Sequence record: PQ493298
DNA length: 64,000 bases
Strand: one strand, 5' to 3'
From: Escherichia phage EPIMAM01
The first letter of the stretch is position 1. Each line of letters opens with the position of its first letter. Below the pieces are notes generated by a model, which did not search any database, was not told the origin of the DNA, and saw nothing but the letters and a program-made list of their open reading frames with translations. Shown in pieces: positions 39 through 21,567 of the stretch. The position numbers and the translations under genes are program-made.

Positions 39-1604
39 ATGACTATCAAAACTAAAGCTGAACTTTTGAACAAATGGAAGCCATTACTGGAAGGTGAAGG
101 TTTACCGGAAATTGCTAATAGCAAACAAGCGATTATCGCTAAAATCTTTGAAAACCAGGAAAAAGATTTCCAGACAGCTCCAGAATACAAAGACGAAAAA
201 ATCGCTCAGGCGTTTGGTTCTTTCTTAACAGAAGCTGAAATCGGTGGTGACCACGGTTACAACGCTACTAACATCGCTGCTGGTCAGACTTCTGGCGCAG
301 TAACTCAGATTGGCCCAGCTGTTATGGGTATGGTACGTCGTGCTATTCCTAACCTGATTGCTTTCGATATTTGCGGTGTTCAGCCGATGAACAGCCCGAC
401 TGGCCAGGTATTCGCACTGCGTGCAGTATATGGTAAAGACCCAATCGCTTCCGGTGCTAAAGAAGCATTCCACCCAATGTATGGTCCAGATGCAATGTTC
501 TCTGGTCAGGGTGCTGCTAAGAAATTCGCTGCTTTGAAAGCAAGTGATACTCTTGAAGTTGGAACTATTTACACCCACTTCTTCCAGGAAACTGGTACTG
601 TATATCTGCAAGCTACAGAAGTTAAGCAAATTGATACTAGTGCATCTGACGCAGCTAAATTAGATGCTGAAATTAAGAAACAAATGGAAGCTGGTGTACT
701 GGTAGAAATCGCTGAAGGTATGGCTACTTCTATCGCTGAACTCCAGGAAGGTTTCAACGGTTCTACCGATAACCCATGGAATGAAATGGGCTTCCGTATC
801 GATAAACAAGTTATCGAAGCTAAATCTCGTCAGCTGAAAGCTGCTTACTCTATCGAATTAGCACAAGACCTCCGCGCTGTTCACGGTATGGATGCTGATG
901 CTGAACTGTCTGGTATTCTGGCTACCGAAATCATGTTGGAAATCAACCGTGAAGTTGTTGATTGGATTAACTACTCAGCTCAGGTTGGTAAATCTGGTAT
1001 GACCCTGACTCCGGGTTCTAAAGCTGGTGTATTTGACTTCCAGGATCCGATTGATATTCGTGGTGCTCGCTGGGCGGGTGAATCCTTTAAAGCTCTGTTG
1101 TTCCAGATTGACAAAGAAGCAGTTGAAATTGCTCGTCAGACCGGTCGTGGTGAAGGTAACTTCATTATCGCTTCCCGTAACGTAGTTAACGTTCTGGCTT
1201 CAGTTGATACCGGCATTTCTTATGCTGCACAGGGTCTGGCTACCGGCTTTAACACTGATACTACCAAGTCAGTATTTGCTGGTGTTCTGGGTGGTAAATA
1301 CCGTGTATATATCGACCAGTATGCTAAACAGGATTATTTCACTGTAGGTTATAAAGGTCCGAACGAAATGGATGCTGGTATTTACTACGCTCCATATGTA
1401 GCTCTGACTCCGCTGCGTGGTTCCGATCCGAAGAACTTCCAACCAGTAATGGGATTCAAAACTCGTTACGGTATCGGTATCAACCCATTTGCAGAATCCG
1501 CTGCTCAGGCTCCGGCTTCTCGCATCCAGAGCGGTATGCCTTCTATTCTGAATAGCCTTGGTAAAAACGCTTACTTCCGCCGTGTATATGTTAAAGGTAT
1601 CTAA
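39..1604 (+). CDS. 23: major capsid protein gp23 (precursor)
   Basis: 521 aa ORF; N-terminus MTIKTKAELLNKWKPLLEGEG and length match recalled T4 gp23; ATG at 39; followed by terminator hairpin. Confidence 0.95.
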   Translation: MTIKTKAELLNKWKPLLEGEGLPEIANSKQAIIAKIFENQEKDFQTAPEYKDEKIAQAFGSFLTEAEIGGDHGYNATNIAAGQTSGAVTQIGPAVMGMVRRAIPNLIAFDICGVQPMNSPTGQVFALRAVYGKDPIASGAKEAFHPMYGPDAMFSGQGAAKKFAALKASDTLEVGTIYTHFFQETGTVYLQATEVKQIDTSASDAAKLDAEIKKQMEAGVLVEIAEGMATSIAELQEGFNGSTDNPWNEMGFRIDKQVIEAKSRQLKAAYSIELAQDLRAVHGMDADAELSGILATEIMLEINREVVDWINYSAQVGKSGMTLTPGSKAGVFDFQDPIDIRGARWAGESFKALLFQIDKEAVEIARQTGRGEGNFIIASRNVVNVLASVDTGISYAAQGLATGFNTDTTKSVFAGVLGGKYRVYIDQYAKQDYFTVGYKGPNEMDAGIYYAPYVALTPLRGSDPKNFQPVMGFKTRYGIGINPFAESAAQAPASRIQSGMPSILNSLGKNAYFRRVYVKGI

Positions 1605-1619
1605 TCTTTGACGATTTAA

Positions 1620-1635
1620 GGGACCTTCGGGTCCC
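1620..1635 (+). terminator. rho-independent terminator after gene 23
   Basis: GGGACC-UUCG-GGUCCC stem-tetraloop followed by TTT, immediately 3' of gp23 stop. Confidence 0.7.
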
Positions 1636-1652
1636 TTTAGTTGTTTTTATGG

Positions 1653-1660
1653 TATAAATA
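1653..1660 (+). promoter_or_regulatory. T4 late promoter (TATAAATA) for gene 24
   Basis: exact TATAAATA about 27 nt upstream of gp24 ATG. Confidence 0.65.
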
Positions 1661-1687
1661 AATCATATAAACCAAAAGGAAAGCGCA

Positions 1688-2971
1688 ATGGCTAAAATCA
1701 ACGAACTTCTGCGCGAATCAACCACAACGAATAGCAACTCAATCGGTCGCCCAAATCTCGTTGCTTTGACTCGCGCTACCACTAAATTAATATATTCTGA
1801 CATTGTAGCAACGCAAAGAACTAATCAACCTGTTGCTGCTTTTTATGGTATCAAATACCTTAACCCGGATAACGAATTTACATTTAAAACTGGTGCTACT
1901 TATGCTGGCGAAGCTGGGTATGTAGACCGAGAACAAATCACAGAATTAACAGAAGAGTCTAAATTAACTCTCAATAAAGGCGATTTATTCAAATATAATA
2001 ATATCGTTTATAAAGTATTAGAAGATACACCATTTGCTGATATTGAAGAAAGTGATTTAGAATTAGCTCTTCAGATTGCAATTGTTCTTTTAAAGGTTCG
2101 TCTATTTTCTGATGCTGCAGTAACAAGCAAATTTGAAAGCTCTGATAGTGAAATTGCGGATGCTAGATTCCAGATTAATAAATGGCAAACCGCAGTTAAA
2201 TCTCGTAAACTTAAAACTGGCATCACAGTCGAATTAGCACAAGATTTAGAAGCAAATGGATTCGATGCTCCTAATTTCTTGGAAGATTTGCTTGCAACTG
2301 AAATGGCGGATGAAATCAATAAAGATATTCTACAGTCTTTGATTACAGTATCAAAACGCTATAAAGTTACAGGAATTACTGATACTGGATTCATTGATTT
2401 GAGTTATGCATCTGCACCTGAAGCTGGTCGTTCATTATACCGAATGGTGTGTGAAATGGTTTCACATATCCAGAAAGAATCAACTTATACAGCAACGTTC
2501 TGTGTTGCTTCAGCTCGCGCCGCTGCGATTCTTGCTGCATCAGGTTGGTTAAAACATAAACCAGAAGATGACAAATATCTTTCACAAAATGCCTACGGGT
2601 TCTTAGCTAATGGTTTACCGCTTTATTGCGATACCAACAGTCCATTAGATTATGTAATCGTTGGCGTAGTAGAAAATATTGGTGAAAAAGAAATTGTTGG
2701 ATCAATTTTCTATGCTCCGTATACAGAAGGTCTTGACTTAGATGACCCTGAACATGTAGGTGCATTTAAAGTTGTAGTTGATCCAGAAAGTTTGCAGCCA
2801 TCTATCGGTTTATTAGTTAGATATGCTTTATCTGCAAATCCTTACACTGTAGCAAAAGATGAAAAAGAAGCAAGAGTAATTGATGGTGGAGACATGGATA
2901 AAATGGCGGGTCGTTCAGATTTGTCTGTTTTATTAGGTGTTAAGCTACCAAAAATTATCATTGATGAATAA
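1688..2971 (+). CDS. 24: capsid vertex protein gp24
   Basis: 427 aa, same length as T4 gp24; gp23-like fold paralog directly after gene 23. Confidence 0.9.
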   Translation: MAKINELLRESTTTNSNSIGRPNLVALTRATTKLIYSDIVATQRTNQPVAAFYGIKYLNPDNEFTFKTGATYAGEAGYVDREQITELTEESKLTLNKGDLFKYNNIVYKVLEDTPFADIEESDLELALQIAIVLLKVRLFSDAAVTSKFESSDSEIADARFQINKWQTAVKSRKLKTGITVELAQDLEANGFDAPNFLEDLLATEMADEINKDILQSLITVSKRYKVTGITDTGFIDLSYASAPEAGRSLYRMVCEMVSHIQKESTYTATFCVASARAAAILAASGWLKHKPEDDKYLSQNAYGFLANGLPLYCDTNSPLDYVIVGVVENIGEKEIVGSIFYAPYTEGLDLDDPEHVGAFKVVVDPESLQPSIGLLVRYALSANPYTVAKDEKEARVIDGGDMDKMAGRSDLSVLLGVKLPKIIIDE

Positions 2972-2977
2972 AACAAA

Positions 2978-2993
2978 GGGACCTTTCGGTCCC
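2978..2993. terminator. bidirectional terminator between gene 24 and rnlB
   Basis: GGGACC-TTTC-GGTCCC hairpin flanked by A-run and T-run between convergent genes. Confidence 0.65.
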
Positions 2994-3000
2994 TTTTTAT

Positions 3001-4005
3001 TTAACTTACCAATTCAATCCAAGCCGGACGAAGTACATCTTGTACCATTTTAACTAATTCCTTCTTAATCAAAGAAGGATTATCCGCTTGAGTTAGAGTA
3101 ATACCTTCACGAGAAGTTTCTTCCAAAATATCTTGAACCGTTAGTCCCATCACCTTTCCAAAATCTTTTGGACCGATTTCGCCAATTTTAGAAATAACGT
3201 TATTTACTCGGTTCAGTGTAACGTAACAAGCTAAAATTCCAACCAATTTGTTATCAGCTTCTGACAGTTCAACTTTAGCTTTAATAGGCTTATCAGACTT
3301 TTTCTTTTCACTAAATTTAGAGTTCTTGCATTTGATAGCTACGCGATTGCCATTAGGCATCCAAGAAGGATAACAAGGTTTCAATACATATCCTTCAGCG
3401 GTAAATACTTCGCCTTTTACTTCAGCATTCCAAACGCATTTATTCGCATCAACTAATCCAGCATGGTCTACTGTAAAATTATAATCTTGGACGACAGAAT
3501 CTAAATCATTTGGCAATTTAATAAGCTCTTCAAATTTACCGCGACCTAAAAGTGGAGCCATTTTAAATTTAAATGTATTACAGAATGATTCCATCATATA
3601 ATCATCGACATAAGTCACATCACCACTTTCTGTAGTAACAATAATGTCAAATACATAAAAATCTTTATCGCCATAATCGACATTCTTCTGAATGCCAGGT
3701 CCGGCAAATTCACCGAAGACTTGATAAGATACAACCGCTGAAGTTTCCATAATATCTTGTACTGCTTTAATGGAATCAGCGTAATTCTTCAAAATAATTT
3801 CATACCCAAAGAAATCTTCAGCAGGAAGAATAGGACCAGTGCGTTTAGCACAAGTTACTTTATCACGCTCAATAATTAATGAGAAATTTGTGCCATGAAT
3901 CTTTTCACGAGCTACCCAATCGCCGCCAGTCAATCCTAAACTATAAAGTTTTTCAATGAATTTAGAATTGTAATGATTTTCAAGACTGCTATACTTTTTA
4001 AACAT
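3001..4005 (-). CDS. rnlB: RNA ligase 2 (Rnl2)
   Basis: 334 aa; N-terminus [42 protein letters not shown] carries the ligase KxHGxN motif; position after gene 24 as in T4. Confidence 0.9.
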
Positions 4006-4014
4006 AATTAATCC

Positions 4015-4293
4015 TCAAAATGTAATTTCTAACCAATCACCATCACGCTGATCACTATTGACTTTAAAGCTAAATCCTTCTTTTCTCAGCCAATCACCAA
4101 TTTCTTCAGTAATCAATTTATCGCGAGCAGTACAATAATAACTAAAATATGTTTTACCTTGTTCAGCTGCTTTATTAGCAAGTTCCGAAAAATCTTTAAT
4201 AAAACACTCTAGCTTAAACTGTTTACTTTTAAGTGCTTTTTCGCGTAATCGATTAGCAAAAGATTCATTTTCATAAAGATCATACTGTTCCAT
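4015..4293 (-). CDS. hypothetical protein (T4 24.2 position)
   Basis: 92 aa ORF, translationally coupled, synteny only. Confidence 0.5.
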   Translation of the reverse strand: MEQYDLYENESFANRLREKALKSKQFKLECFIKDFSELANKAAEQGKTYFSYYCTARDKLITEEIGDWLRKEGFSFKVNSDQRDGDWLEITF

Positions 4294-4296
4294 TTT

Positions 4297-4494
4297 TCAC
4301 CTTTTATTAATATGTCTTTTTCTATAGACAACTTTTTCTCGAGTTTCAAATTTATTCTTAGCAGTCATAGCTCGAGCCCATAATACAGCCACTTCTTTCA
4401 CCTGTAAGTTTAATTCACGAGCAATTTCAATGAATGACTTTCCAGACTCATGAAGAGTAAACACCACAACCTCAGTTCTCATAATCAATCTCAT
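4297..4494 (-). CDS. hypothetical small basic protein (T4 24.3 position)
   Basis: 65 aa ORF, basic C-terminus; synteny only. Confidence 0.45.
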   Translation of the reverse strand: MRLIMRTEVVVFTLHESGKSFIEIARELNLQVKEVAVLWARAMTAKNKFETREKVVYRKRHINKR

Positions 4495-4563
4495 GTTATC
4501 GAGTTGATGCCATTATATACATCATTTTCTGAGTATGTTTTGTGTGCTTTCAAAATGAAGAAA

Positions 4564-4577
4564 GGGGCCGAAGCCCC
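4564..4577 (-). terminator. terminator hairpin 3' of hoc
   Basis: GGGGC-CGAA-GCCCC stem-loop just downstream of hoc stop on minus strand. Confidence 0.55.
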
Positions 4578-4589
4578 TTATGATTATGA

Positions 4590-6014
4590 TTATGGATAGG
4601 TATAGATGATACCAGTTTCTAAAGCAGTTTTATGAATGATGTATCCATTGCGTGATTCTTGAACATCAACTTCTGGATAGTCTTTCATCATCTTCTGAAG
4701 AGTGTAACGATGCAGGTAGTATTTACTGTCTGGATCTTCAGTTTTCCAATCTTTACCTTCTTCGGTCATTTTTTGGATTTCATCCATAACCCACCAACCG
4801 CACCAGATATAAGCAGAAGTACGATGTGGAAGAGGATGAACATAAGGCAATTCACCTTCTGGTTCCGGAGCAACTTTATCAGTTACCTGAACTTGGCCTG
4901 TTGCTTTAACTGTTTTACTATCATAGTCGGTTGCTGTAACGACAGCAGTAACTTCAATAGTTTGACTTCCAATAGATGAGGTGTCAACGGTGTATACGTT
5001 AGTTGACCCTTCTACAGGAGAAGAATCTTTCTTCCATGAATAAGTAATTTGTGCTGCTTCAGGTGCTCCAGTAACATTAGCCGTAAATGTAGCCGAAGCA
5101 TCTTGCTGAACGTTAATAGAAGGAGGAGTCAATGTAACCTGTGGATTCATTGTCTTCTTATTAACTGTCAATGATACTTCATTAGAAGTAACTTCCTTTT
5201 CATTGTAATTTTCTGCAGTTACTTGCGCTACACATTTAATTCTTTTTACTCCACTTGTAGTTGGAGTATAGTTAAATGTAGAGTTAGTTTCTCCACCAAT
5301 TTGAGAATCATCTACATACCACTTATATGTAGCAGACGCTCCATCAGGTTGAGAAGCTAAGGCAGCAGTAAATTGAACTGGAGTTCCAATTACTCCAGCT
5401 GAAGGACTATTAGGAGTTACAACTAAAGTAGTCGCTTGGGTTTTCTTGTTAACAGTCAGCGACACTTCGTCAGAAGTAACGGTCTTTGTATCATAATCTG
5501 TCGCAGTTACTTGAGCTACACACTTAATTTTTTTAACTCCGCTTGTGGCAGGAGTATAGTTAAATGTAGCGTCAGTTGCTTCTCCCACAGGAGAACCGTC
5601 GACGTGCCATTGATACGTAGCAGATGCACCTGGCGGCTGTGAATCTAAGGCAGCGGTAAATTGAACAGCTGTTCCGATTACTCCTTCCGAAGGACTATCA
5701 GGAGTTACTGTTATTGTAGTAGTCTGTGTCTTATTTTGAACTGTGATAGTTGTCGTAGTTTCTGCTGTTTCAGGTTCAGCTTCAGATTCTGGAACTGTAT
5801 TTGTTGCAACTACTTTAATAGTCTTTTGACCTGCAGGTCCTTTTAGTACATAGCTAAAAGTTGCTTCAGCTCCATCCTGTGGAACATTATCTACACTCCA
5901 AGCATAGGTAATAGTTCCACCTTCAGTTTGACCACTGGGTGTAGCAGTAAACTGCTTGGTTTCATCAATAACTCCTGTTGGGGTTTTAGGAGTTATATCA
6001 ACTGTAAAAGTCAT
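4590..6014 (-). CDS. hoc: Hoc, highly immunogenic outer capsid protein, with four Ig-like domains
   Basis: 474 aa; N-terminus MTFTVDITPKTPTGVIDETKQFTATPSG and C-terminal capsid-binding region match recalled T4 Hoc (376 aa); about 98 aa longer because of an extra Ig-like domain. Confidence 0.9.
   Translation of the reverse strand: MTFTVDITPKTPTGVIDETKQFTATPSGQTEGGTITYAWSVDNVPQDGAEATFSYVLKGPAGQKTIKVVATNTVPESEAEPETAETTTTITVQNKTQTTTITVTPDSPSEGVIGTAVQFTAALDSQPPGASATYQWHVDGSPVGEATDATFNYTPATSGVKKIKCVAQVTATDYDTKTVTSDEVSLTVNKKTQATTLVVTPNSPSAGVIGTPVQFTAALASQPDGASATYKWYVDDSQIGGETNSTFNYTPTTSGVKRIKCVAQVTAENYNEKEVTSNEVSLTVNKKTMNPQVTLTPPSINVQQDASATFTANVTGAPEAAQITYSWKKDSSPVEGSTNVYTVDTSSIGSQTIEVTAVVTATDYDSKTVKATGQVQVTDKVAPEPEGELPYVHPLPHRTSAYIWCGWWVMDEIQKMTEEGKDWKTEDPDSKYYLHRYTLQKMMKDYPEVDVQESRNGYIIHKTALETGIIYTYP
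5154..5729 (-). repeat. diverged tandem duplication (2 x ~288 bp) encoding Hoc Ig-like domains 2 and 3
   Basis: translated repeats TQTTTITVTPDSPSEGVIGTAVQFTAAL... and TQATTLVVTPNSPSAGVIGTPVQFTAAL... are about 80 percent identical over 96 aa. Confidence 0.8.
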
Positions 6015-6023
6015 AAGTTATCC

Positions 6024-6704
6024 TTATTTTAATGTTACGAAAGAAGAATTACGTGTTTCACGAATTAGAACTGATCCGTCGCGATTAATGTAATAAATTA
6101 AGCTAAATAAAGTTTGGTGCGCCGACGCGTGTTCAAAACTAGTTGGGTGAGATTTCCAATCCGGAGTTTCAGCAATCCATTGGTAAATCCACCAAGGAAC
6201 AGTGCAGAATCCTGGATTTTTTCCAATCAGCTGAAGATTTGGGCTAAAGTTTTCCGGAAGAGTAAATACAGACGGCTTTTCAGATTCAATAATCTCAGCT
6301 ACAGCCTGTTCGAATTTTTCTTCAACAAAAGGAGTATCTTCAATCAAAACATCGGTATTTTCAGGAATTTTATCCGTTTCTACTACTTTAATTTTAATGT
6401 CAGATTTAACCGGAGAATCAATCAGAAGTGCTGCCTCTGGATTGACTTCTTCATCGTCATATTTTAATCCGTCTGCGGCATCAGCAGCATCGATTAAGTC
6501 TTTAATAGATAACCCATCAGTCTCTGGCATAGGTTCACTAGCGAGCTTCTGGAGGGCTTCTTCAATATCATTAACGATATTATCAAAAGATTTATTCTTT
6601 TTGACCTTTATACCAAACTGTTCAGCATATTCAGCTAATTTAGCTTTAGCTTCTTTATTATCATCAAGAGCCTTCAGCTCTGCAATATAATCTTTATCTA
6701 TCAT
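6024..6704 (-). CDS. inh: Inh, inhibitor of prohead protease gp21 (acidic protein)
   Basis: 226 aa acidic ORF between hoc and uvsW, the T4 inh position; assignment by synteny and size. Confidence 0.7.
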   Translation of the reverse strand: MIDKDYIAELKALDDNKEAKAKLAEYAEQFGIKVKKNKSFDNIVNDIEEALQKLASEPMPETDGLSIKDLIDAADAADGLKYDDEEVNPEAALLIDSPVKSDIKIKVVETDKIPENTDVLIEDTPFVEEKFEQAVAEIIESEKPSVFTLPENFSPNLQLIGKNPGFCTVPWWIYQWIAETPDWKSHPTSFEHASAHQTLFSLIYYINRDGSVLIRETRNSSFVTLK

Positions 6705-6717
6705 AATATTTCCTCAG

Positions 6718-6725
6718 TATAAATA
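6718..6725 (+). promoter_or_regulatory. T4 late promoter TATAAATA upstream of uvsW
   Basis: exact TATAAATA about 30 nt upstream of uvsW ATG in the divergent inh/uvsW intergenic region. Confidence 0.55.
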
Positions 6726-6754
6726 TAGATATATTTATTACATGGTATTTAGAC

Positions 6755-8266
6755 ATGACTGACATTAAAGTACATTTTTATGATTTTAGTCACGTGAGAA
6801 TTGATTGCGAAGAAAGTACATTTCATGAACTCCGTGATTTCTTTAGCTTTGAAGCTGATGGGTATCGTTTTAATCCGAAATACAAATATGGCCACTGGGA
6901 TGGACGAATCCGTCTTTTAGATTATAATCGTCTTCTTCCATTCGGCTTAGTCGGGCAAATTAAAAAGTTCTGCGATAACTTTGGCTATAAAGCCTGGATT
7001 GACCCACAGATTAACGAAAAAGAAGAATTATCAAGAAAAGATTTTGATGAATGGCTTTCTAAATTAGAAATCTATTCAGGAAATAAAAGAATTGAACCGC
7101 ATTGGTATCAAAAAGATGCAGTGTTCGAAGGATTAGTTAATCGTCGTAGAATTCTTAATCTTCCAACATCCGCAGGTAAATCTTTAATTCAAGCTTTGCT
7201 TGCTCGGTATTATTTGGAAAATTATGAAGGCAAAATTCTTATCATTGTTCCAACAACTGCTCTGACAACTCAGATGGCTGATGACTTTGTTGACTATCGT
7301 TTATTCAGTCATGCAATGATAAAGAAAATCGGCGGTGGAGCATCAAAAGATGATAAATATAAAAATGATGCACCAGTCGTTGTTGGTACATGGCAAACTG
7401 TAGTAAAACAACCAAAAGAATGGTTCTCACAGTTTGGAATGATGATGAATGATGAATGCCATCTTGCTACAGGAAAAAGTATTTCATCTATCATATCAGG
7501 TTTAAATAACTGTATGTTTAAATTTGGTTTGTCTGGTTCATTGCGCGATGGCAAAGCTAATATCATGCAGTATGTTGGAATGTTTGGTGAAATATTTAAG
7601 CCAGTAACGACTTCTAAATTAATGGAAGATGGACAAGTAACTGAGTTAAAAATTAATAGCATTTTTCTTCGCTATCCCGATGAGTTCACTACTAAATTAA
7701 AGGGAAAAACTTACCAAGAAGAAATAAAAATTATTACTGGGCTCAGTAAAAGAAATAAATGGATCGCTAAATTAGCTATTAAGCTTGCGCAAAAAGATGA
7801 AAACGCTTTTGTCATGTTTAAACACGTATCGCACGGTAAAGCTATTTTCGATTTAATTAAAAATGAATACGATAAAGTTTATTACGTATCAGGGGAAGTT
7901 GATACCGAAACCCGCAATGTAATGAAAACCTTAGCTGAAAACGGTAAAGGAATAATTATAGTAGCTAGTTATGGTGTATTTTCTACTGGTATTTCAGTTA
8001 AAAATCTGCATCACGTTGTTTTAGCACACGGTGTTAAATCTAAAATTATTGTATTGCAAACAATAGGTCGCGTATTACGTAAACATGGTTCTAAAACAAT
8101 CGCAACAGTCTGGGACCTCATAGATGATTGCGGTGTTAAGCCAAAATCTGCTAATACGAAAAAGAAATACGTTCATTTGAACTATCTTTTAAAACACGGC
8201 ATTGATCGTATTCAGCGCTACGCAGATGAAAAATTTAATTACGTAATGAAAACAGTTAATTTATAA
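6755..8266 (+). CDS. uvsW: UvsW DNA/RNA helicase
   Basis: 503 aa; Walker A LPTSAGKS and DECH box (MMNDECHLA); length matches T4 UvsW. Confidence 0.92.
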   Translation: MTDIKVHFYDFSHVRIDCEESTFHELRDFFSFEADGYRFNPKYKYGHWDGRIRLLDYNRLLPFGLVGQIKKFCDNFGYKAWIDPQINEKEELSRKDFDEWLSKLEIYSGNKRIEPHWYQKDAVFEGLVNRRRILNLPTSAGKSLIQALLARYYLENYEGKILIIVPTTALTTQMADDFVDYRLFSHAMIKKIGGGASKDDKYKNDAPVVVGTWQTVVKQPKEWFSQFGMMMNDECHLATGKSISSIISGLNNCMFKFGLSGSLRDGKANIMQYVGMFGEIFKPVTTSKLMEDGQVTELKINSIFLRYPDEFTTKLKGKTYQEEIKIITGLSKRNKWIAKLAIKLAQKDENAFVMFKHVSHGKAIFDLIKNEYDKVYYVSGEVDTETRNVMKTLAENGKGIIIVASYGVFSTGISVKNLHHVVLAHGVKSKIIVLQTIGRVLRKHGSKTIATVWDLIDDCGVKPKSANTKKKYVHLNYLLKHGIDRIQRYADEKFNYVMKTVNL

Positions 8267-16792: not shown

Positions 16793-16796
16793 CAAT

Positions 16797-16814
16797 GGGG
16801 ACCTTTTGGTCCCC
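16797..16814. terminator. terminator hairpin after gene 54
   Basis: GGGGACC-TTTT-GGTCCCC followed by ATATTTTTATTT; between convergent genes 54 and alt.-3. Confidence 0.7.
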
Positions 16815-16820
16815 ATATTT

Positions 16821-17111
16821 TTATTTACGGAATGAAATAAAAGCAGCAACTGAAGCAACTAAACTGTCTTCAATATAAACTTCAATTTTTACCGGAGCTT
16901 CTGACTCAAATTTACCTGTTACTACACCTTGGAAAATGCTTTCAGTCTGTTCTGGCTTTGAAAAATTTTCAGAAGGAAAAATTCCGAACTTTTTATCTGT
17001 TCCAAAAATTTTGATAAATTCATCATAAACTGCTTCATTAAAAGCGTTATCAGCAGGAATAACGCCTTCAACTACAAGTTCTTGACCTAAAAAGCGTAAA
17101 GAAGATTTCAT
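16821..17111 (-). CDS. hypothetical protein (T4 alt.-3 position)
   Basis: 96 aa ORF preceded by early promoter and SD. Confidence 0.5.
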   Translation of the reverse strand: MKSSLRFLGQELVVEGVIPADNAFNEAVYDEFIKIFGTDKKFGIFPSENFSKPEQTESIFQGVVTGKFESEAPVKIEVYIEDSLVASVAAFISFRK

Positions 17112-17139: not shown

Positions 17140-17171
17140 ATTATTATAACACAGCACGAGGGACTTGTAAA
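17140..17171 (-). promoter_or_regulatory. T4 early-type promoter (GTTTAC -35, TATAAT-like -10) upstream of alt.-3
   Basis: minus-strand GTTTACAAGTCCCTCGTGCTGTGTTATAAT; near-identical cassette recurs upstream of alc. Confidence 0.6.
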
Positions 17172-19229
17172 CTACATCTTGAACTTTTTAGACATTCCGT
17201 TGATGTTAACCAAAGAAGCCAAGATTTGAGAAACTTCGTTTTCCTCTTCTTTTGATTCTTCTACAAGGAATTGATTAAACCCAGCCATTGGACGAACTTC
17301 ACCAGTTTCCATTAGATGATCGCCATCATATACCGATTCTTCTAATTGTTCAGAAGGAGGAACGATTGTGCCTTCAATTAGATACTTGTTATAAGCAGTT
17401 TCTTTCATCATGTACGTGCTCACTTTATTAATCTTCAGCAAAATTCCACGCGGTAGAATAACTTCAGCTTCTGATGGAAATCCTGATAAATGACCTGGAA
17501 CGATAACTTTGATTCGCTCAGCCCCTTTAATTACCATACCTACGCTAGCTTCAGCATCTTCATTAGCATATGCAGAATGACTACCCATATGCATTAAATC
17601 TTCAGCATCAACAGAACCTTCTCCTTCACCAGAAAATACTGCGCCGGAATCATCTAGAGCCATATAGTTTTTACCATGCTCACCGAAGATATTTGGTTTA
17701 AGCGATGTTGATACGAAGTTCTTGAAATAGAACATTTTATTTTCAATATTATGGCGTAAAGTTTTAAAAGTAACTTCTTGACCACGATAAAGCGTAGTTC
17801 CCGGAGGAAGAACTGATCCTTTGGCGAATGCAGAATCCATTGTCTCGATGTGTTTAATAGCTCGTTCCATGTATTCTTCACGGGTAGAATCCGGTTTACC
17901 TAAAAGGAACGAGTTCATTTCAACATATGAATCTGCACAATAATCTTCAATTACATCAGACTCAGCCTGAGTTAATCCTTTTGGAGTTACTTCGGTGCTT
18001 GCGTATTCATATGCCTGAGCAGCAGATTCATTAATCAATTTATAAATGCCATTCATGACAAATTGAATAATAGCTACCTTTTCGTCTGGTGCGGCTTTAG
18101 AACCTTTAACTAAATCATTGATAATTTTCTTAATAACATCAAAGCTATTAGAAATATTAATGTCAGCGAGATCGCTCAAAATTTTATCGGTTTTATAATC
18201 AAAGAATTCTTTATTCTTTAAATATTCTTGAGAACCTTGATGTGTTATATCGCTCTGCAGTCTGATAGACGGATCACGTAAACGTGCATGGGCCAATGCA
18301 ATATGATTTCGGAAGCTTTCTAGTTCATAATCGTTAGATTTAAAACGAGAAGCACTTCTCATACCACCGATAGCTCCTTTGCCGAAGTTTGAACCAATCT
18401 GAATAACGCCAGAGTTCATTGGTCCTTCTGCTTTATATACCGGAACTTTAGATTCAAACTCTTGATATTTCTTAGCGGCGAAGCTATCACCCTGAAGTGA
18501 AGCATCGACAGTAGAATATTGAGCTTGTGCTGCTAATCGACGACTAATTTTAGTTTTCTGAATAACAGCTTGATCCGTGCGCTTATCATTTTCTAAAGCA
18601 ATAGAAGCAGCTACAGCAACAGCTTTAGGAACAGCATTACCTGTTTTAACATCTACATAAACATCACCAACCTTTGATTCAACTTTTGTGAATAACTCAG
18701 TTGAAATAGGAGGTACACCTGGAATGTCTTCTAAATTGGCATTTTTACGGTAAACCATAATATATGCATACTTTTTATCGTAATCCCAGATTTCCTTTAA
18801 AAGAACATATCGACCTGCTCCTTTAGTACGTACTAAACGGTCAGCAATAACTTGCATTTGACGAGCTGCGCCATTTGTTTTACTTTTTAGTACGCGGAAT
18901 AGGCATGCATCAATTTTATACTGTTTCATTGTTTGAAGAGCAGTATCAAAAACAGCATTAATGACACCAATTGGATTTCCACCCAAGTTTTTAAGTTTAA
19001 CTAATGATAGTTTCTCATTAACACCTATCATTACGATATGCATCATTTTATCACCTGGCTTAACGTTTTTATTTGTATCACCGCCAGAGGTGTATGTACA
19101 AAATCTAAATCCAGGAAGCACGCTTTCTTCACCGGCTTGAATAGCAAAAATTTGAGGTATTTTATGCTTAGGATTTAAGTTAACAACCGGCGCCGAAGCG
19201 CCGTCAAATAATTCTGTAATAAGTTCCAT
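17172..19229 (-). CDS. Alt-like ADP-ribosyltransferase paralog (second copy)
   Basis: 685 aa; N-terminal about 220 aa highly similar to adjacent alt; C-terminal ART-type R...STS...ExE signature (YRGQ, FVSTS, SEAEVILPRG). Confidence 0.8.
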   Translation of the reverse strand: MELITELFDGASAPVVNLNPKHKIPQIFAIQAGEESVLPGFRFCTYTSGGDTNKNVKPGDKMMHIVMIGVNEKLSLVKLKNLGGNPIGVINAVFDTALQTMKQYKIDACLFRVLKSKTNGAARQMQVIADRLVRTKGAGRYVLLKEIWDYDKKYAYIMVYRKNANLEDIPGVPPISTELFTKVESKVGDVYVDVKTGNAVPKAVAVAASIALENDKRTDQAVIQKTKISRRLAAQAQYSTVDASLQGDSFAAKKYQEFESKVPVYKAEGPMNSGVIQIGSNFGKGAIGGMRSASRFKSNDYELESFRNHIALAHARLRDPSIRLQSDITHQGSQEYLKNKEFFDYKTDKILSDLADINISNSFDVIKKIINDLVKGSKAAPDEKVAIIQFVMNGIYKLINESAAQAYEYASTEVTPKGLTQAESDVIEDYCADSYVEMNSFLLGKPDSTREEYMERAIKHIETMDSAFAKGSVLPPGTTLYRGQEVTFKTLRHNIENKMFYFKNFVSTSLKPNIFGEHGKNYMALDDSGAVFSGEGEGSVDAEDLMHMGSHSAYANEDAEASVGMVIKGAERIKVIVPGHLSGFPSEAEVILPRGILLKINKVSTYMMKETAYNKYLIEGTIVPPSEQLEESVYDGDHLMETGEVRPMAGFNQFLVEESKEEENEVSQILASLVNINGMSKKFKM

Positions 19230-19232
19230 GAT

Positions 19233-21329
19233 TTATCCTTGAACGAACTTGTAAGGCATGTTTGTAATATCTATGCAAGACGCAATAATTCCAAGAGATG
19301 ATTCGACTTTCTGTTTAACATTTGATGAAACAAATGATGCAAAATCAACTCTGTCTTCTATTTCAATATCACCTGTCATTGCAACTACTTCACCAGTTTC
19401 CATTAGACGGTCACCGTCATAAATTACTGATTCGGTGAGTTCTTCCGTAGTCATAACTTCAGCTTGAATGAGTTTTGTATTATTAGATGTTGTTCCGTCA
19501 TTATTAGAAGCATCAGTTATTTTATTAACTTTGACCATCAATCCGCGTGGTAGAATAACTTCAGCTTCTGTTGCTATTCCGAGACTTCCTGGATATACAA
19601 CATTAACTTTATGAGCTCCATCAATTGCCCATCCTATTTGAACTTTAACGTATTCAGGATTTTCTTTATACGCTCTTATTTCATTTGGATTAATAGTTAT
19701 TCCTTCTTCATTTTTATCAACTGTCAATTCATTACGAGCTTCTGGTTCTAAAAGACCAATACCAGCATGTGTAATTCCAAAACGTCCAAAAATGATAGGA
19801 GTTAAAGAAGTAGATACAAAATTTCTGAAATAGAACACTTTATTTTTAACTAGTGCTTCGTATATAGGAGCAGTCATGCTTTGAGCACGATAAACTGTAA
19901 TGCCTTCTGGTATACGGTCACCATTTTCAAAAGCTGAATCTAAGTTATTTATAGCAGATTCAATTTCTTTTTCACTCATTACATCATATCGTTCTGGATT
20001 GTAGCGTCCTAAAAGAAGATTATTGATGTCAGTATATCCTGAACCACAATACTCTCTAATGCCGCGCTTTTGTGATGGAGTATATTTAGAACCATCACGG
20101 GCAATAGTAATATCAATCATTGGACCTGCACCAATTCCAGAAAAACTATAAATCATTCTTTTGAGGAATTTAGTTTTTGCTGCGTTCCAGGAAGTTTTAG
20201 TTATTTCTTCCCAGACTTCATCTGGCTGTCCTTTACGTGTTTTATTATGTTTATCAAGCCAATTATCTTTATATTCTTCAAAGAGTTGATTAACGGCTGC
20301 TGCGTATTTCTCTAAACATTTTATTGAAGTAGTTGGTTCATTTTTAATCGCATTAAGAATTACATCTTTAATCTTTTCAGAAACTTCATCAACCTCACTT
20401 TTTGAAAAGAATTTATAATCATAATGAAGTTCATTTGCGGTTCCTTCGGCAATAATTTTTGCTGCCTTGGTTTTAGAAGCTAATGAATTAATTCCAAGTT
20501 TCATTTCTTCCGCTTCGGGAATTAAAGGAGCGGTAGCAGGTTTATTGAAATTAGCTGCGGTAGATTCATACTTCTGGAATAATTCACTTTCAAATCTAGA
20601 AGATTCCAATGACTGACTTTGCGCAATTGCTCTACGGGAAATTTTAACTTTAACGATTACGGCTTGATCAGAACGTTTATCGTTTTCTTGCGCAATAGAT
20701 GCTGCAATTGCCTCATTTTTAGTTACTTGAGCTCCAGTATCTTTATTGATATAAACATCACCGACCTTCGATTCAACTTTAGTAAAGAGCTCGGTACTAA
20801 TTTCCGGAACTCCTGGAATGTCTTCTAGCGATACATTTTTGCGATGTATAAGAATATATGCGTACTTTTTATCGTAATCCCAGAGTTCCTTAAGAAGGAC
20901 GTATCTGCCACCTGAACGACTGCGGATAAGTCTATCAGCAATAAGTTGAATTTGTCGAGCTTGACCAGCAGTTTTAGACTTAAGAATACGGAGCATACAG
21001 GCATCAATTTTATACTGACGCATCGTTTGCATTGCAACTGTAAAAACTGAATTGATATAATTAATTGGGCTTGGACCGAGACCTTTTAATTTAGCAATTG
21101 AACCTTTAGCAGTTAATGTAAAAGGAACAATATGCATCATTTTATCGCCCATCTTTAAATCGCGATTAGTATCACCTCCAGATGTGTAGGTACATAAACG
21201 AAAGCCTGGTTGTTCAATTGCGTCATCAACATGAACTGAAAAAATTTGCGGTATTTTCTTCTTTGGATTTAAGTTTGTAATCGGAAGAGTAGTATCTTCG
21301 TCAAATAATTCTGTAATGAGTTCCATCAT
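19233..21329 (-). CDS. alt: Alt ADP-ribosyltransferase (capsid-packaged)
   Basis: 698 aa; adjacent to gene 30 as in T4; R-STS-ExE motif (YRAQ, FVSTS, TEAEVILPRG). Confidence 0.85.
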   Translation of the reverse strand: MMELITELFDEDTTLPITNLNPKKKIPQIFSVHVDDAIEQPGFRLCTYTSGGDTNRDLKMGDKMMHIVPFTLTAKGSIAKLKGLGPSPINYINSVFTVAMQTMRQYKIDACMLRILKSKTAGQARQIQLIADRLIRSRSGGRYVLLKELWDYDKKYAYILIHRKNVSLEDIPGVPEISTELFTKVESKVGDVYINKDTGAQVTKNEAIAASIAQENDKRSDQAVIVKVKISRRAIAQSQSLESSRFESELFQKYESTAANFNKPATAPLIPEAEEMKLGINSLASKTKAAKIIAEGTANELHYDYKFFSKSEVDEVSEKIKDVILNAIKNEPTTSIKCLEKYAAAVNQLFEEYKDNWLDKHNKTRKGQPDEVWEEITKTSWNAAKTKFLKRMIYSFSGIGAGPMIDITIARDGSKYTPSQKRGIREYCGSGYTDINNLLLGRYNPERYDVMSEKEIESAINNLDSAFENGDRIPEGITVYRAQSMTAPIYEALVKNKVFYFRNFVSTSLTPIIFGRFGITHAGIGLLEPEARNELTVDKNEEGITINPNEIRAYKENPEYVKVQIGWAIDGAHKVNVVYPGSLGIATEAEVILPRGLMVKVNKITDASNNDGTTSNNTKLIQAEVMTTEELTESVIYDGDRLMETGEVVAMTGDIEIEDRVDFASFVSSNVKQKVESSLGIIASCIDITNMPYKFVQG

Positions 21330-21362
21330 ATCCTCTCTAGTGTTTATTCTATTTATAAAATT

Positions 21363-21380
21363 AAAGGCCCGAAGGCCTTT
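21363..21380 (-). terminator. terminator-like hairpin between 62-aa ORF and alt
   Basis: AAAGGCC-CGAA-GGCCTTT palindromic stem-loop. Confidence 0.5.
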
Positions 21381-21567
21381 AATAATCTATTGGTAAGAGA
21401 GTACGATATATTTCAAACTTTGGACCTTTTTCATAGGTATCAAATGTTTCTGTGAATTTATTATAAGCATATGCATCTATAAATTCAATCATAATTTGTG
21501 ATACAGAAGTAGAAACATCTCCACCTTCTTTTTGAGCCACGACAATTGTTTCTAAGTAAGCTTTCAT
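21379..21567 (-). CDS. hypothetical protein
   Basis: 62 aa ORF coupled to 3' end of gene 30. Confidence 0.4.
   Translation of the reverse strand: MKAYLETIVVAQKEGGDVSTSVSQIMIEFIDAYAYNKFTETFDTYEKGPKFEIYRTLLPIDY

Follow-up and report, generated by a model that had tools for sequence, protein, structure and literature searches.

Two adjacent genes on the minus strand of Escherichia phage EPIMAM01 (record PQ493298) belong to the family of Alt, the ADP-ribosyltransferase that phage T4 packages into its head. In the 64,000-nucleotide stretch of DNA analyzed here, hereafter called the window, they occupy 19233-21329 (698 aa counted from the first ATG) and 17172-19229 (685 aa), the positions given in an initial annotation that was made from the sequence alone and took them for tandem full-length alt paralogs. 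We confirmed this view: both are intact tandem Alt-family paralogs, and both carry complete R/S-T-S/E-x-E motifs. We refer to the 685-aa paralog as Alt2 and to its gene as alt2; in related phages it is annotated as "alt.-2" or "Alt-like." Overall, the pair is best read as two functional Alt-family ADP-ribosyltransferase genes, a situation ordinary for the genus Tequatrovirus, and we assign this reading a probability of about 80%. The alt open reading frame (ORF) opens with ATG-ATG, preceded by a Shine-Dalgarno sequence (GAGG) that is only 2 nt away from the first of these codons but 5 nt away from the other, and the second ATG (21326) is the annotated start in the orthologs of ime09, RB18, PP01, and others. 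Given this spacing and these orthologs, the alt product is most likely a 697-aa protein beginning with MELITELFD.

Aligned over their full length by BLASTP, Alt and Alt2 are 41% identical (E 1e-156). As the initial annotation had proposed, a closely similar N-terminal part, extending over ~238 aa at 67% identity overall (56 to 76% per 50-residue block), is followed by a diverged center of ~180 aa in which only about 12 to 20% of the residues are identical. Identity is about 35 to 40% in the ADP-ribosyltransferase (ART) region and 42% in the C-terminal tail. A Pfam scan of the window proteins assigned both to PF03496 (ADPrib_exo_Tox, ADP-ribosyltransferase exoenzyme), with E values of 2.3e-37 for Alt and 4.4e-20 for Alt2, and both matched PHROG 802, "Alt-like RNA polymerase ADP-ribosyltransferase," from end to end (E 4e-272 and 2e-255, respectively); Alt2 is in addition 42% identical to T4 Alt across 100% of its length. 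All full-length homologs have precomputed Pfam assignments to PF03496 and to the N-terminal family PF26846; the latter was not reported for either window protein by our scan. The C-terminal R-STS-ExE signature claimed for both proteins maps to R480, S505-T-S, and E587-A-E589 in Alt and to R482, S507-T-S, and E587-A-E589 in Alt2. Pairwise alignment showed that catalytic residues have been lost in neither copy, and the R/S-T-S/E-x-E residues were invariant in an alignment of 21 homologous sequences, down to 42% identity. E-x-E is the arginine-specific form of the motif in R-S-E clade ADP-ribosyltransferases, and the ART domains of Alt and Alt2 are predicted to be mono-ADP-ribosyltransferases of the R-S-E type, with arginine specificity suggested by this motif. 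Each protein consists of a conserved ~238-aa alpha/beta N-domain, a ~180-aa helical center, an R-S-E-type ART, and a tail of ~55 to 65 aa.

The AlphaFold2 model of Alt2, with a mean predicted local distance difference test (pLDDT) score of 74.7, comprises an alpha/beta N-domain (residues ~15-215), an all-helical center (~250-470), and a beta-rich ART core (~480-622) whose pLDDT lies mostly between 55 and 91 per 10-residue block. The modeled tail becomes disordered at residue ~629, which coincides with the cleavage motif. A Foldseek comparison with the PDB placed the ART core close to Vis, Certhrax, C3, VIP2, and CDTa (E 4e-7 to 1e-4, probability 1.00, target template modeling score about 0.6). 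A search of the PDB with the Alt2 sequence gave no match at an E value of ≤0.01, and no solved relative of the N-domain or of the helical center was seen in the PDB sequence and Foldseek searches.

The Alt2 orthologs of eight phages (EPIMAM01, ime09, RB18, AR1, ESH35, PP01, UFV11, and ZN18) are all 685 aa long and free of stop codons. Their mean nonsynonymous (dN) and synonymous (dS) divergences, calculated according to Nei and Gojobori, are 0.009 and 0.21, giving a dN/dS of 0.043; broken down by part, the approximate ratios are 0.01 for the N-domain, 0.10 for the center, and 0.04 for the ART. These values show that alt2 evolves under strong purifying selection as a coding gene, and we therefore consider it functional.

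According to the initial annotation, T4 has one intact alt and the short ORFs alt.-1 and alt.-2 at this position. This is correct: the T4 genome (NC_000866) carries alt (682 aa), alt.-1 (61 aa), and alt.-2 (67 aa), that is, one intact gene plus fragments rather than two intact genes. T4 alt.-1 (NP_049810) and alt.-2 (NP_049809) are near-identical to the first ~116 codons of alt2 and have the same position, and the PHROG families of these two ORFs match Alt2 (E 2e-40 and 3e-38) better than they match Alt (E 1e-21 and 2e-19). On this comparative evidence, T4 alt.-1/alt.-2 is the decayed ortholog of full-length alt2. With the junction placed from the flanking sequence and from blastn coordinates, the T4 deletion measures 1699 bp and lies between two copies of the direct repeat CTAAAAAGT that are 1699 bp apart in the window, one of which remains in T4; judged from these end-points, the loss has the hallmarks of a deletion event between short direct repeats. 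The repeat as such is not rare: the window contains it 4 times, a count also reached in 7 of 100 shuffles, so that its significance derives solely from its coincidence with both deletion end-points. Where the window has a run of five A residues in alt2, T4 has four, a -1 frameshift from which both the stop of alt.-1 and the restart at alt.-2 arise. The T4 state can hence be derived from the window sequence in two events, the 1699-bp deletion and a -1 slip in the A run.

The initial annotation implied that an intact second copy would be unusual, and this did not hold. In a megablast search, the 4.8-kb locus was recovered from 542 phage records; coverage reaches at least 80% in 320 of them, mostly at 95 to 99% identity, and many records are annotated with "Alt-like RNA polymerase ADP-ribosyltransferase (x2)." The stretch that T4 has lost was covered to at least 80% in 401 records, and tblastn detected Alt2 at an amino acid identity of at least 90% in 401 phage records, including RB3, RB18, RB27, AR1, PP01, ime09, and Shfl2. 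Identity of Alt2 to its EPIMRB01 ortholog amounts to 99.7%, and that to hundreds of others to 97 to 99%. The T4-type junction, in contrast, was spanned contiguously in only 91 of 499 records. With an intact second copy in ~400 records versus 91 of the T4 type, the intact pair is the majority state of Tequatrovirus, and T4 represents the minority. Tandem copies have also been described before. The T4 record and Nolan 2006 (PMC1524935) cover alt.-1/alt.-2 as well as duplications next to alt in 44RR (ORF187c/188c) and RB49 (ORF183c), among them a full-length duplicate, and a 2026 paper (PMC13600099) described two Alt-like paralogs with 43.29% identity in 6phi13 and SHFML-11 and suggested functional divergence after duplication. 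Both the finding and its interpretation are thus already known, being in print and annotated across hundreds of RefSeq/GenBank genomes. The number of alt copies at the locus varies, from one in Mosigvirus F31 (at 3995-6082 of its locus sequence) through two in most Tequatrovirus genomes to three in Dhakavirus QL01 (at 864-7124 of its locus sequence).

T4 Alt is known for the NAD (nicotinamide adenine dinucleotide)-dependent ADP-ribosylation of an arginine, R265, of RNA polymerase alpha. Several features suggest that Alt2 may act on other proteins. The ~185-aa centers of the alt lineage (window, T4, QL01_201, and F31) can be aligned with each other (E 1e-16 to 1e-93), as can those of the alt2 lineage (window Alt2 and QL01_199; E 1e-51), whereas BLASTP revealed no detectable similarity between centers of the two lineages. 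In the ADP-ribosylating toxin turn-turn (ARTT) loop, the residue at -3 from E-x-E is F or Y only in the alt2 lineage and I, P, H, or S in the others; we take this position to be that of C3 F209 and iota toxin Y375, which contributes to substrate recognition. Each lineage is conserved across genera, with identities in the center and ART of 44 and 59%, respectively, between Alt2 and QL01_199 and of 64 and 95% between Alt and QL01_201. Dissimilar centers, a lineage-specific ARTT residue, and cross-genus conservation together lend some support to a distinct target set for Alt2, to which we would give even odds. Alternatively, Alt2 could be a redundant back-up or dosage copy, packaged and active on the same host targets (RNA polymerase alpha and others). 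The two proteins do share family, architecture, type of E-x-E motif, and processing motifs, and T4 and about 90 other records manage without alt2. However, the copies have long been distinct, with ARTs that are ~35% identical, centers devoid of detectable similarity, and lineages maintained across genera, and strong purifying selection on each copy would not be expected for a redundant duplicate. We consider redundancy unlikely.

By its neighbors (gp29, gp48, gp54, alt.-3, alt.1, and gp30), the locus is the T4-type alt locus. The window comes from a Tequatrovirus, a T4-like phage and not T4 itself. The gene order, gp29-48-54 on the plus strand followed by alt.-3-alt2-alt-alt.1-gp30 on the minus strand, matches that of T4. 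All coordinates are collected in Table 1.

Table 1. Genes, domains, motifs, and signals of the alt-alt2 locus in the window
Feature	Position	Strand	Description
alt	19233..21326	-	Alt ADP-ribosyltransferase, 697 aa from second ATG (mechanical ORF up to 21329)
alt, N-domain	20610-21326	-	
alt, helical center	20088-20609	-	
alt, ART	19443-20087	-	
alt, R480	19887-19889	-	catalytic codon
alt, S505	19812-19814	-	catalytic codon
alt, E587	19566-19568	-	catalytic codon
alt, E589	19560-19562	-	catalytic codon
alt, ITE-6	21309-21311	-	gp21 motif, codon of E6
alt, LTE-632	19431-19433	-	gp21 motif, codon of E632
alt2	17172..19229	-	second ADP-ribosyltransferase, 685 aa
alt2, N-domain	18516-19229	-	
alt2, helical center	17985-18515	-	
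alt2, ART	17355-17984	-	
alt2, C-terminal tail	17175-17336	-	
alt2, R482	17784-17786	-	catalytic codon
alt2, S507	17709-17711	-	catalytic codon
alt2, E587	17469-17471	-	catalytic codon
alt2, E589	17463-17465	-	catalytic codon
alt2, ITE-6	19212-19214	-	gp21 motif, codon of E6
alt2, LEE-631	17337-17339	-	gp21 motif, codon of E631
T4 late-promoter motif (putative) TATAAATA	21350..21357	-	24 nt upstream of alt start codon
GC-rich hairpin AAAGGCC-TTCG-GGCCTTT	21363..21380	-	terminator-like, upstream of alt, overlaps alt.1 stop codon
alt2 Shine-Dalgarno AAGGA	19236..19240	-	6 nt before alt2 ATG
A5 run	19066..19070	-	alt2 codons 54-55; T4 has A4
9-bp direct repeat CTAAAAAGT, upstream copy	18882..18890	-	left end-point of T4 deletion
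9-bp direct repeat CTAAAAAGT, downstream copy	17183..17191	-	right end-point of T4 deletion
alt.1	21379..21567	-	62 aa, Pfam Phage_blade; upstream neighbor, between DNA ligase gp30 and alt
alt.-3	16821..17111	-	96 aa, DUF5498; downstream neighbor

The motif TATAAATA upstream of alt matches the T4 late-promoter consensus, and it is likely the promoter of an alt-alt2 late transcript. The motif is not enriched across the window (12 found versus 8.4 expected), so that this assignment draws on its position and on what is known of T4. A further TATAAATA lies at 19946-19953 (minus strand), within the portion of alt that encodes the ART and ~720 nt ahead of the start of alt2, and may be either a chance match or an internal late promoter for alt2. 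The hairpin that precedes alt is in line with the conserved terminator noted there by Nolan 2006 (PMC1524935). At the alt/alt2 junction, the alt stop codon (TAA, 19233-19235) is located between the AAGGA and the ATG of alt2, leaving an intergenic gap of 3 nt, and no terminator-like site was found between the two genes. These signals, which are consensus matches in context and not statistical evidence, are consistent with a late alt-alt2 operon. Directly past the alt2 stop codon, a near-consensus promoter of the early type (TTTACA-17-TATAAT, with TG upstream and 11 of 12 matches; 17143-17171, minus strand) would serve alt.-3, which a bidirectional terminator with a 9-bp stem (16795-16816) separates from the convergent gene 54. 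The scan for sigma-70 promoters as a whole remained at chance level in the window (18 found versus 18.5 expected).

Each T4 head contains ~40 copies of Alt, which the gp21 prohead protease trims after ITE-6 and LTE-619 to a mature protein of 68.2 kDa (PMC5694885, PMC9026906); the L-x-E motif of T4 Alt for gp21 lies about 63 aa from the C terminus. The MELITE N terminus is kept in both Alt and Alt2, and at the aligned position both have the C-terminal gp21 motif L-x-E↓S-V, namely, LTE-632 in Alt and LEE-631 (LEE↓SVYDGD) in Alt2. The gp21 processing motifs of T4 Alt are thus conserved in both window proteins, and cleavage at these sites is predicted to yield mature forms of 70.1 kDa for Alt and 69.0 kDa for Alt2 (residues 7-631). 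By analogy with T4 Alt, Alt2 is probably packaged into the head and ejected with the DNA.

By homology and analogy with T4 Alt, we propose that late transcription of alt and alt2 would start at the TATAAATA promoter ahead of alt and that both products would be built into the prohead core and trimmed by gp21 after ITE-6 and after the L-x-E near residue 631/632. Ejected together with the DNA, they would then carry out the NAD-dependent mono-ADP-ribosylation of arginines in host proteins at the onset of infection, the target spectrum of Alt2 plausibly differing from that of Alt. A different possibility is that Alt2 is not injected at all and acts late in the producing cell or serves as a noncatalytic structural component of the prohead core. 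For Alt2, packaging and ejection are indeed predictions by analogy, and the gene would be expressed, if at all, from a late promoter. Against this, the MELITE propeptide, the whole N-domain, and the L-x-E↓S-V-Y-D-G-D context of the packaged T4 Alt are conserved, and a noncatalytic role is at odds with catalytic residues that are invariant in 21 homologs and with a dN/dS of about 0.04 in the ART; we regard this possibility as quite improbable. That one copy might be a decaying pseudogene in EPIMAM01, as in T4, where decay shows that the locus can erode, and as truncated alt2 variants in the databases might suggest, is refuted by full-length reading frames without stops or frameshifts, by intact motifs, by a dN/dS of 0.04, and by the near-identity of Alt2 to its orthologs in EPIMRB01 and hundreds of other phages. 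A catalytically dead paralog was rejected on the same grounds of motifs and selection.

Several points weigh against two functional genes with the roles proposed here. T4 and 90 other records have lost alt2, and N-terminally shortened forms of Alt2 (624, 528, and 415 aa, the last on 14 contigs) occur at 97 to 98% identity on long phage contigs, which suggests further independent truncations or frameshifts, or else miscalled starts. Given this loss and these truncated variants, Alt2 is dispensable at least on laboratory hosts, like alt, which is itself nonessential (PMC9026906). With the internal TATAAATA and the sigma-70-like matches at chance level, the structure of the transcript is a prediction from sequence, and the ARTT comparison with C3 and iota toxin relies on residue numbering rather than on superposed structures. 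The literature searched holds only genome descriptions of the second copy and no virion proteomics or functional work on it, and we infer expression, packaging, cleavage, ejection, and catalysis of Alt2 by analogy with T4 Alt.

The domains of these proteins appear to have incongruent histories. In Tequatrovirus, alt itself falls into two deeply diverged allele classes, one found in T4 and AR1 (682/684 aa) and the other in EPIMAM01, ime09, RB18, PP01, and others (697 aa). Over the first 240 aa the classes share ~99% of their residues, and over the tail 94%; they differ in the center (28 to 49% amino acid identity) and in the ART (46 to 64%; window versus T4, 19443-20609), with dN 0.66 and dS above 1 in the center and dN 0.26 and dS about 1.1 in the ART. 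At the nucleotide level, the first ~800 nt of the window alt are 94.5% identical to T4 alt. The ART of the window Alt is 95% identical to that of QL01_201, and over nt 681-1937 the gene is 78.7% identical to QL01_201 versus 73% for T4 alt; by these measures, the center and ART of the window alt are closer to those of Dhakavirus QL01_201 than to those of T4 alt. AR1 combines a T4-type alt with an intact alt2, indicating that alt allele class and alt2 loss are independent. The N-domains group by genome, with 67% identity within the window and 66 to 89% among the three copies of QL01 versus only 42 to 47% across genera, whereas the effector parts (center plus ART) group by position across genera. 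The N-domain pattern suggests gene conversion or coadaptation with the prohead core of each phage, and the data fit either module exchange between phages or homogenization of the N-domain within a genome. This mosaic at the level of domains suggests that target specificity may reside in the helical center, the ART insert, and the ARTT loop.

As a tentative extension, which we think somewhat less probable than not to be correct, the Tevenvirinae alt locus might be an array of exchangeable cassettes for injected effectors, in which Alt2 has a host target of its own and was lost by T4. A genome-specific N-terminal packaging domain and a cleavable tail would frame center-plus-ART modules that belong to old lineages (the alt-T4, alt-window/QL01_201, alt2/QL01_199, and QL01_200 types). 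The modules would move between genera by recombination while N-domains are homogenized within each genome, and the target of Alt2 could be a defense or stress protein rather than RNA polymerase.

Since genomes of the genus are normally annotated with a pair of Alt-like genes, and this pair has been discussed in print, the finding by itself matters little. What it brings into view concerns T4, the model phage behind all Alt biology: through a natural deletion, T4 lacks a second capsid-type ADP-ribosyltransferase that is strongly conserved. If the locus does work as an array of cassettes, the classical T4 model underrepresents the repertoire of injected ADP-ribosylation in the genus, and alt2, beside alt, is a lead for work on host takeover and antidefense in T-even phages.

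Compared with known systems, the closest counterparts of Alt2 are the second Alt-like genes annotated elsewhere in Tequatrovirus (ime09 alt.-2 [YP_007004572], RB18 YP_010067078, AR1_201, and PP01_203), which are direct orthologs of 685 aa with 97 to 99.7% amino acid identity, the same position, and no material difference from Alt2. In Dhakavirus QL01, the same locus holds a similar tandem array of full-length Alt-family genes, QL01_199/200/201, in which QL01_199 corresponds to Alt2 by position and sequence and QL01_201 corresponds to Alt. QL01_199 has S-A-S instead of S-T-S and a 100-aa insert from there to E-x-E. Toxins of the R-S-E clade (Vis, C3, VIP2, iota/CDTa, and Certhrax) share with Alt and Alt2 their catalytic fold as well as an active site of the form R/S-T-S/(E/Q)-x-E, although their sequence identity to phage Alt proteins is only 14 to 20%. 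Unlike these toxins, the phage Alt proteins have a 68- to 100-aa insert between S-T-S and E-x-E, as well as a phage-specific N-domain, a helical center, and a cleavable tail. T4 Alt (gpAlt, NP_049811), the head-packaged NAD(+)--arginine ADP-ribosyltransferase, is the ortholog of the window Alt; both are encoded between alt.1/gene 30 and alt.-3/gene 54, and they are alike in their R/S-T-S/E-x-E residues and gp21 motifs and in the late promoter and hairpin upstream of the gene. According to the T4 record (NC_000866), alt.-1/alt.-2 go back to an old duplication that took in "the first part" of alt. Our comparison indicates, in contrast, that the whole gene was present first and was truncated later, so that this description understates what T4 has lost.

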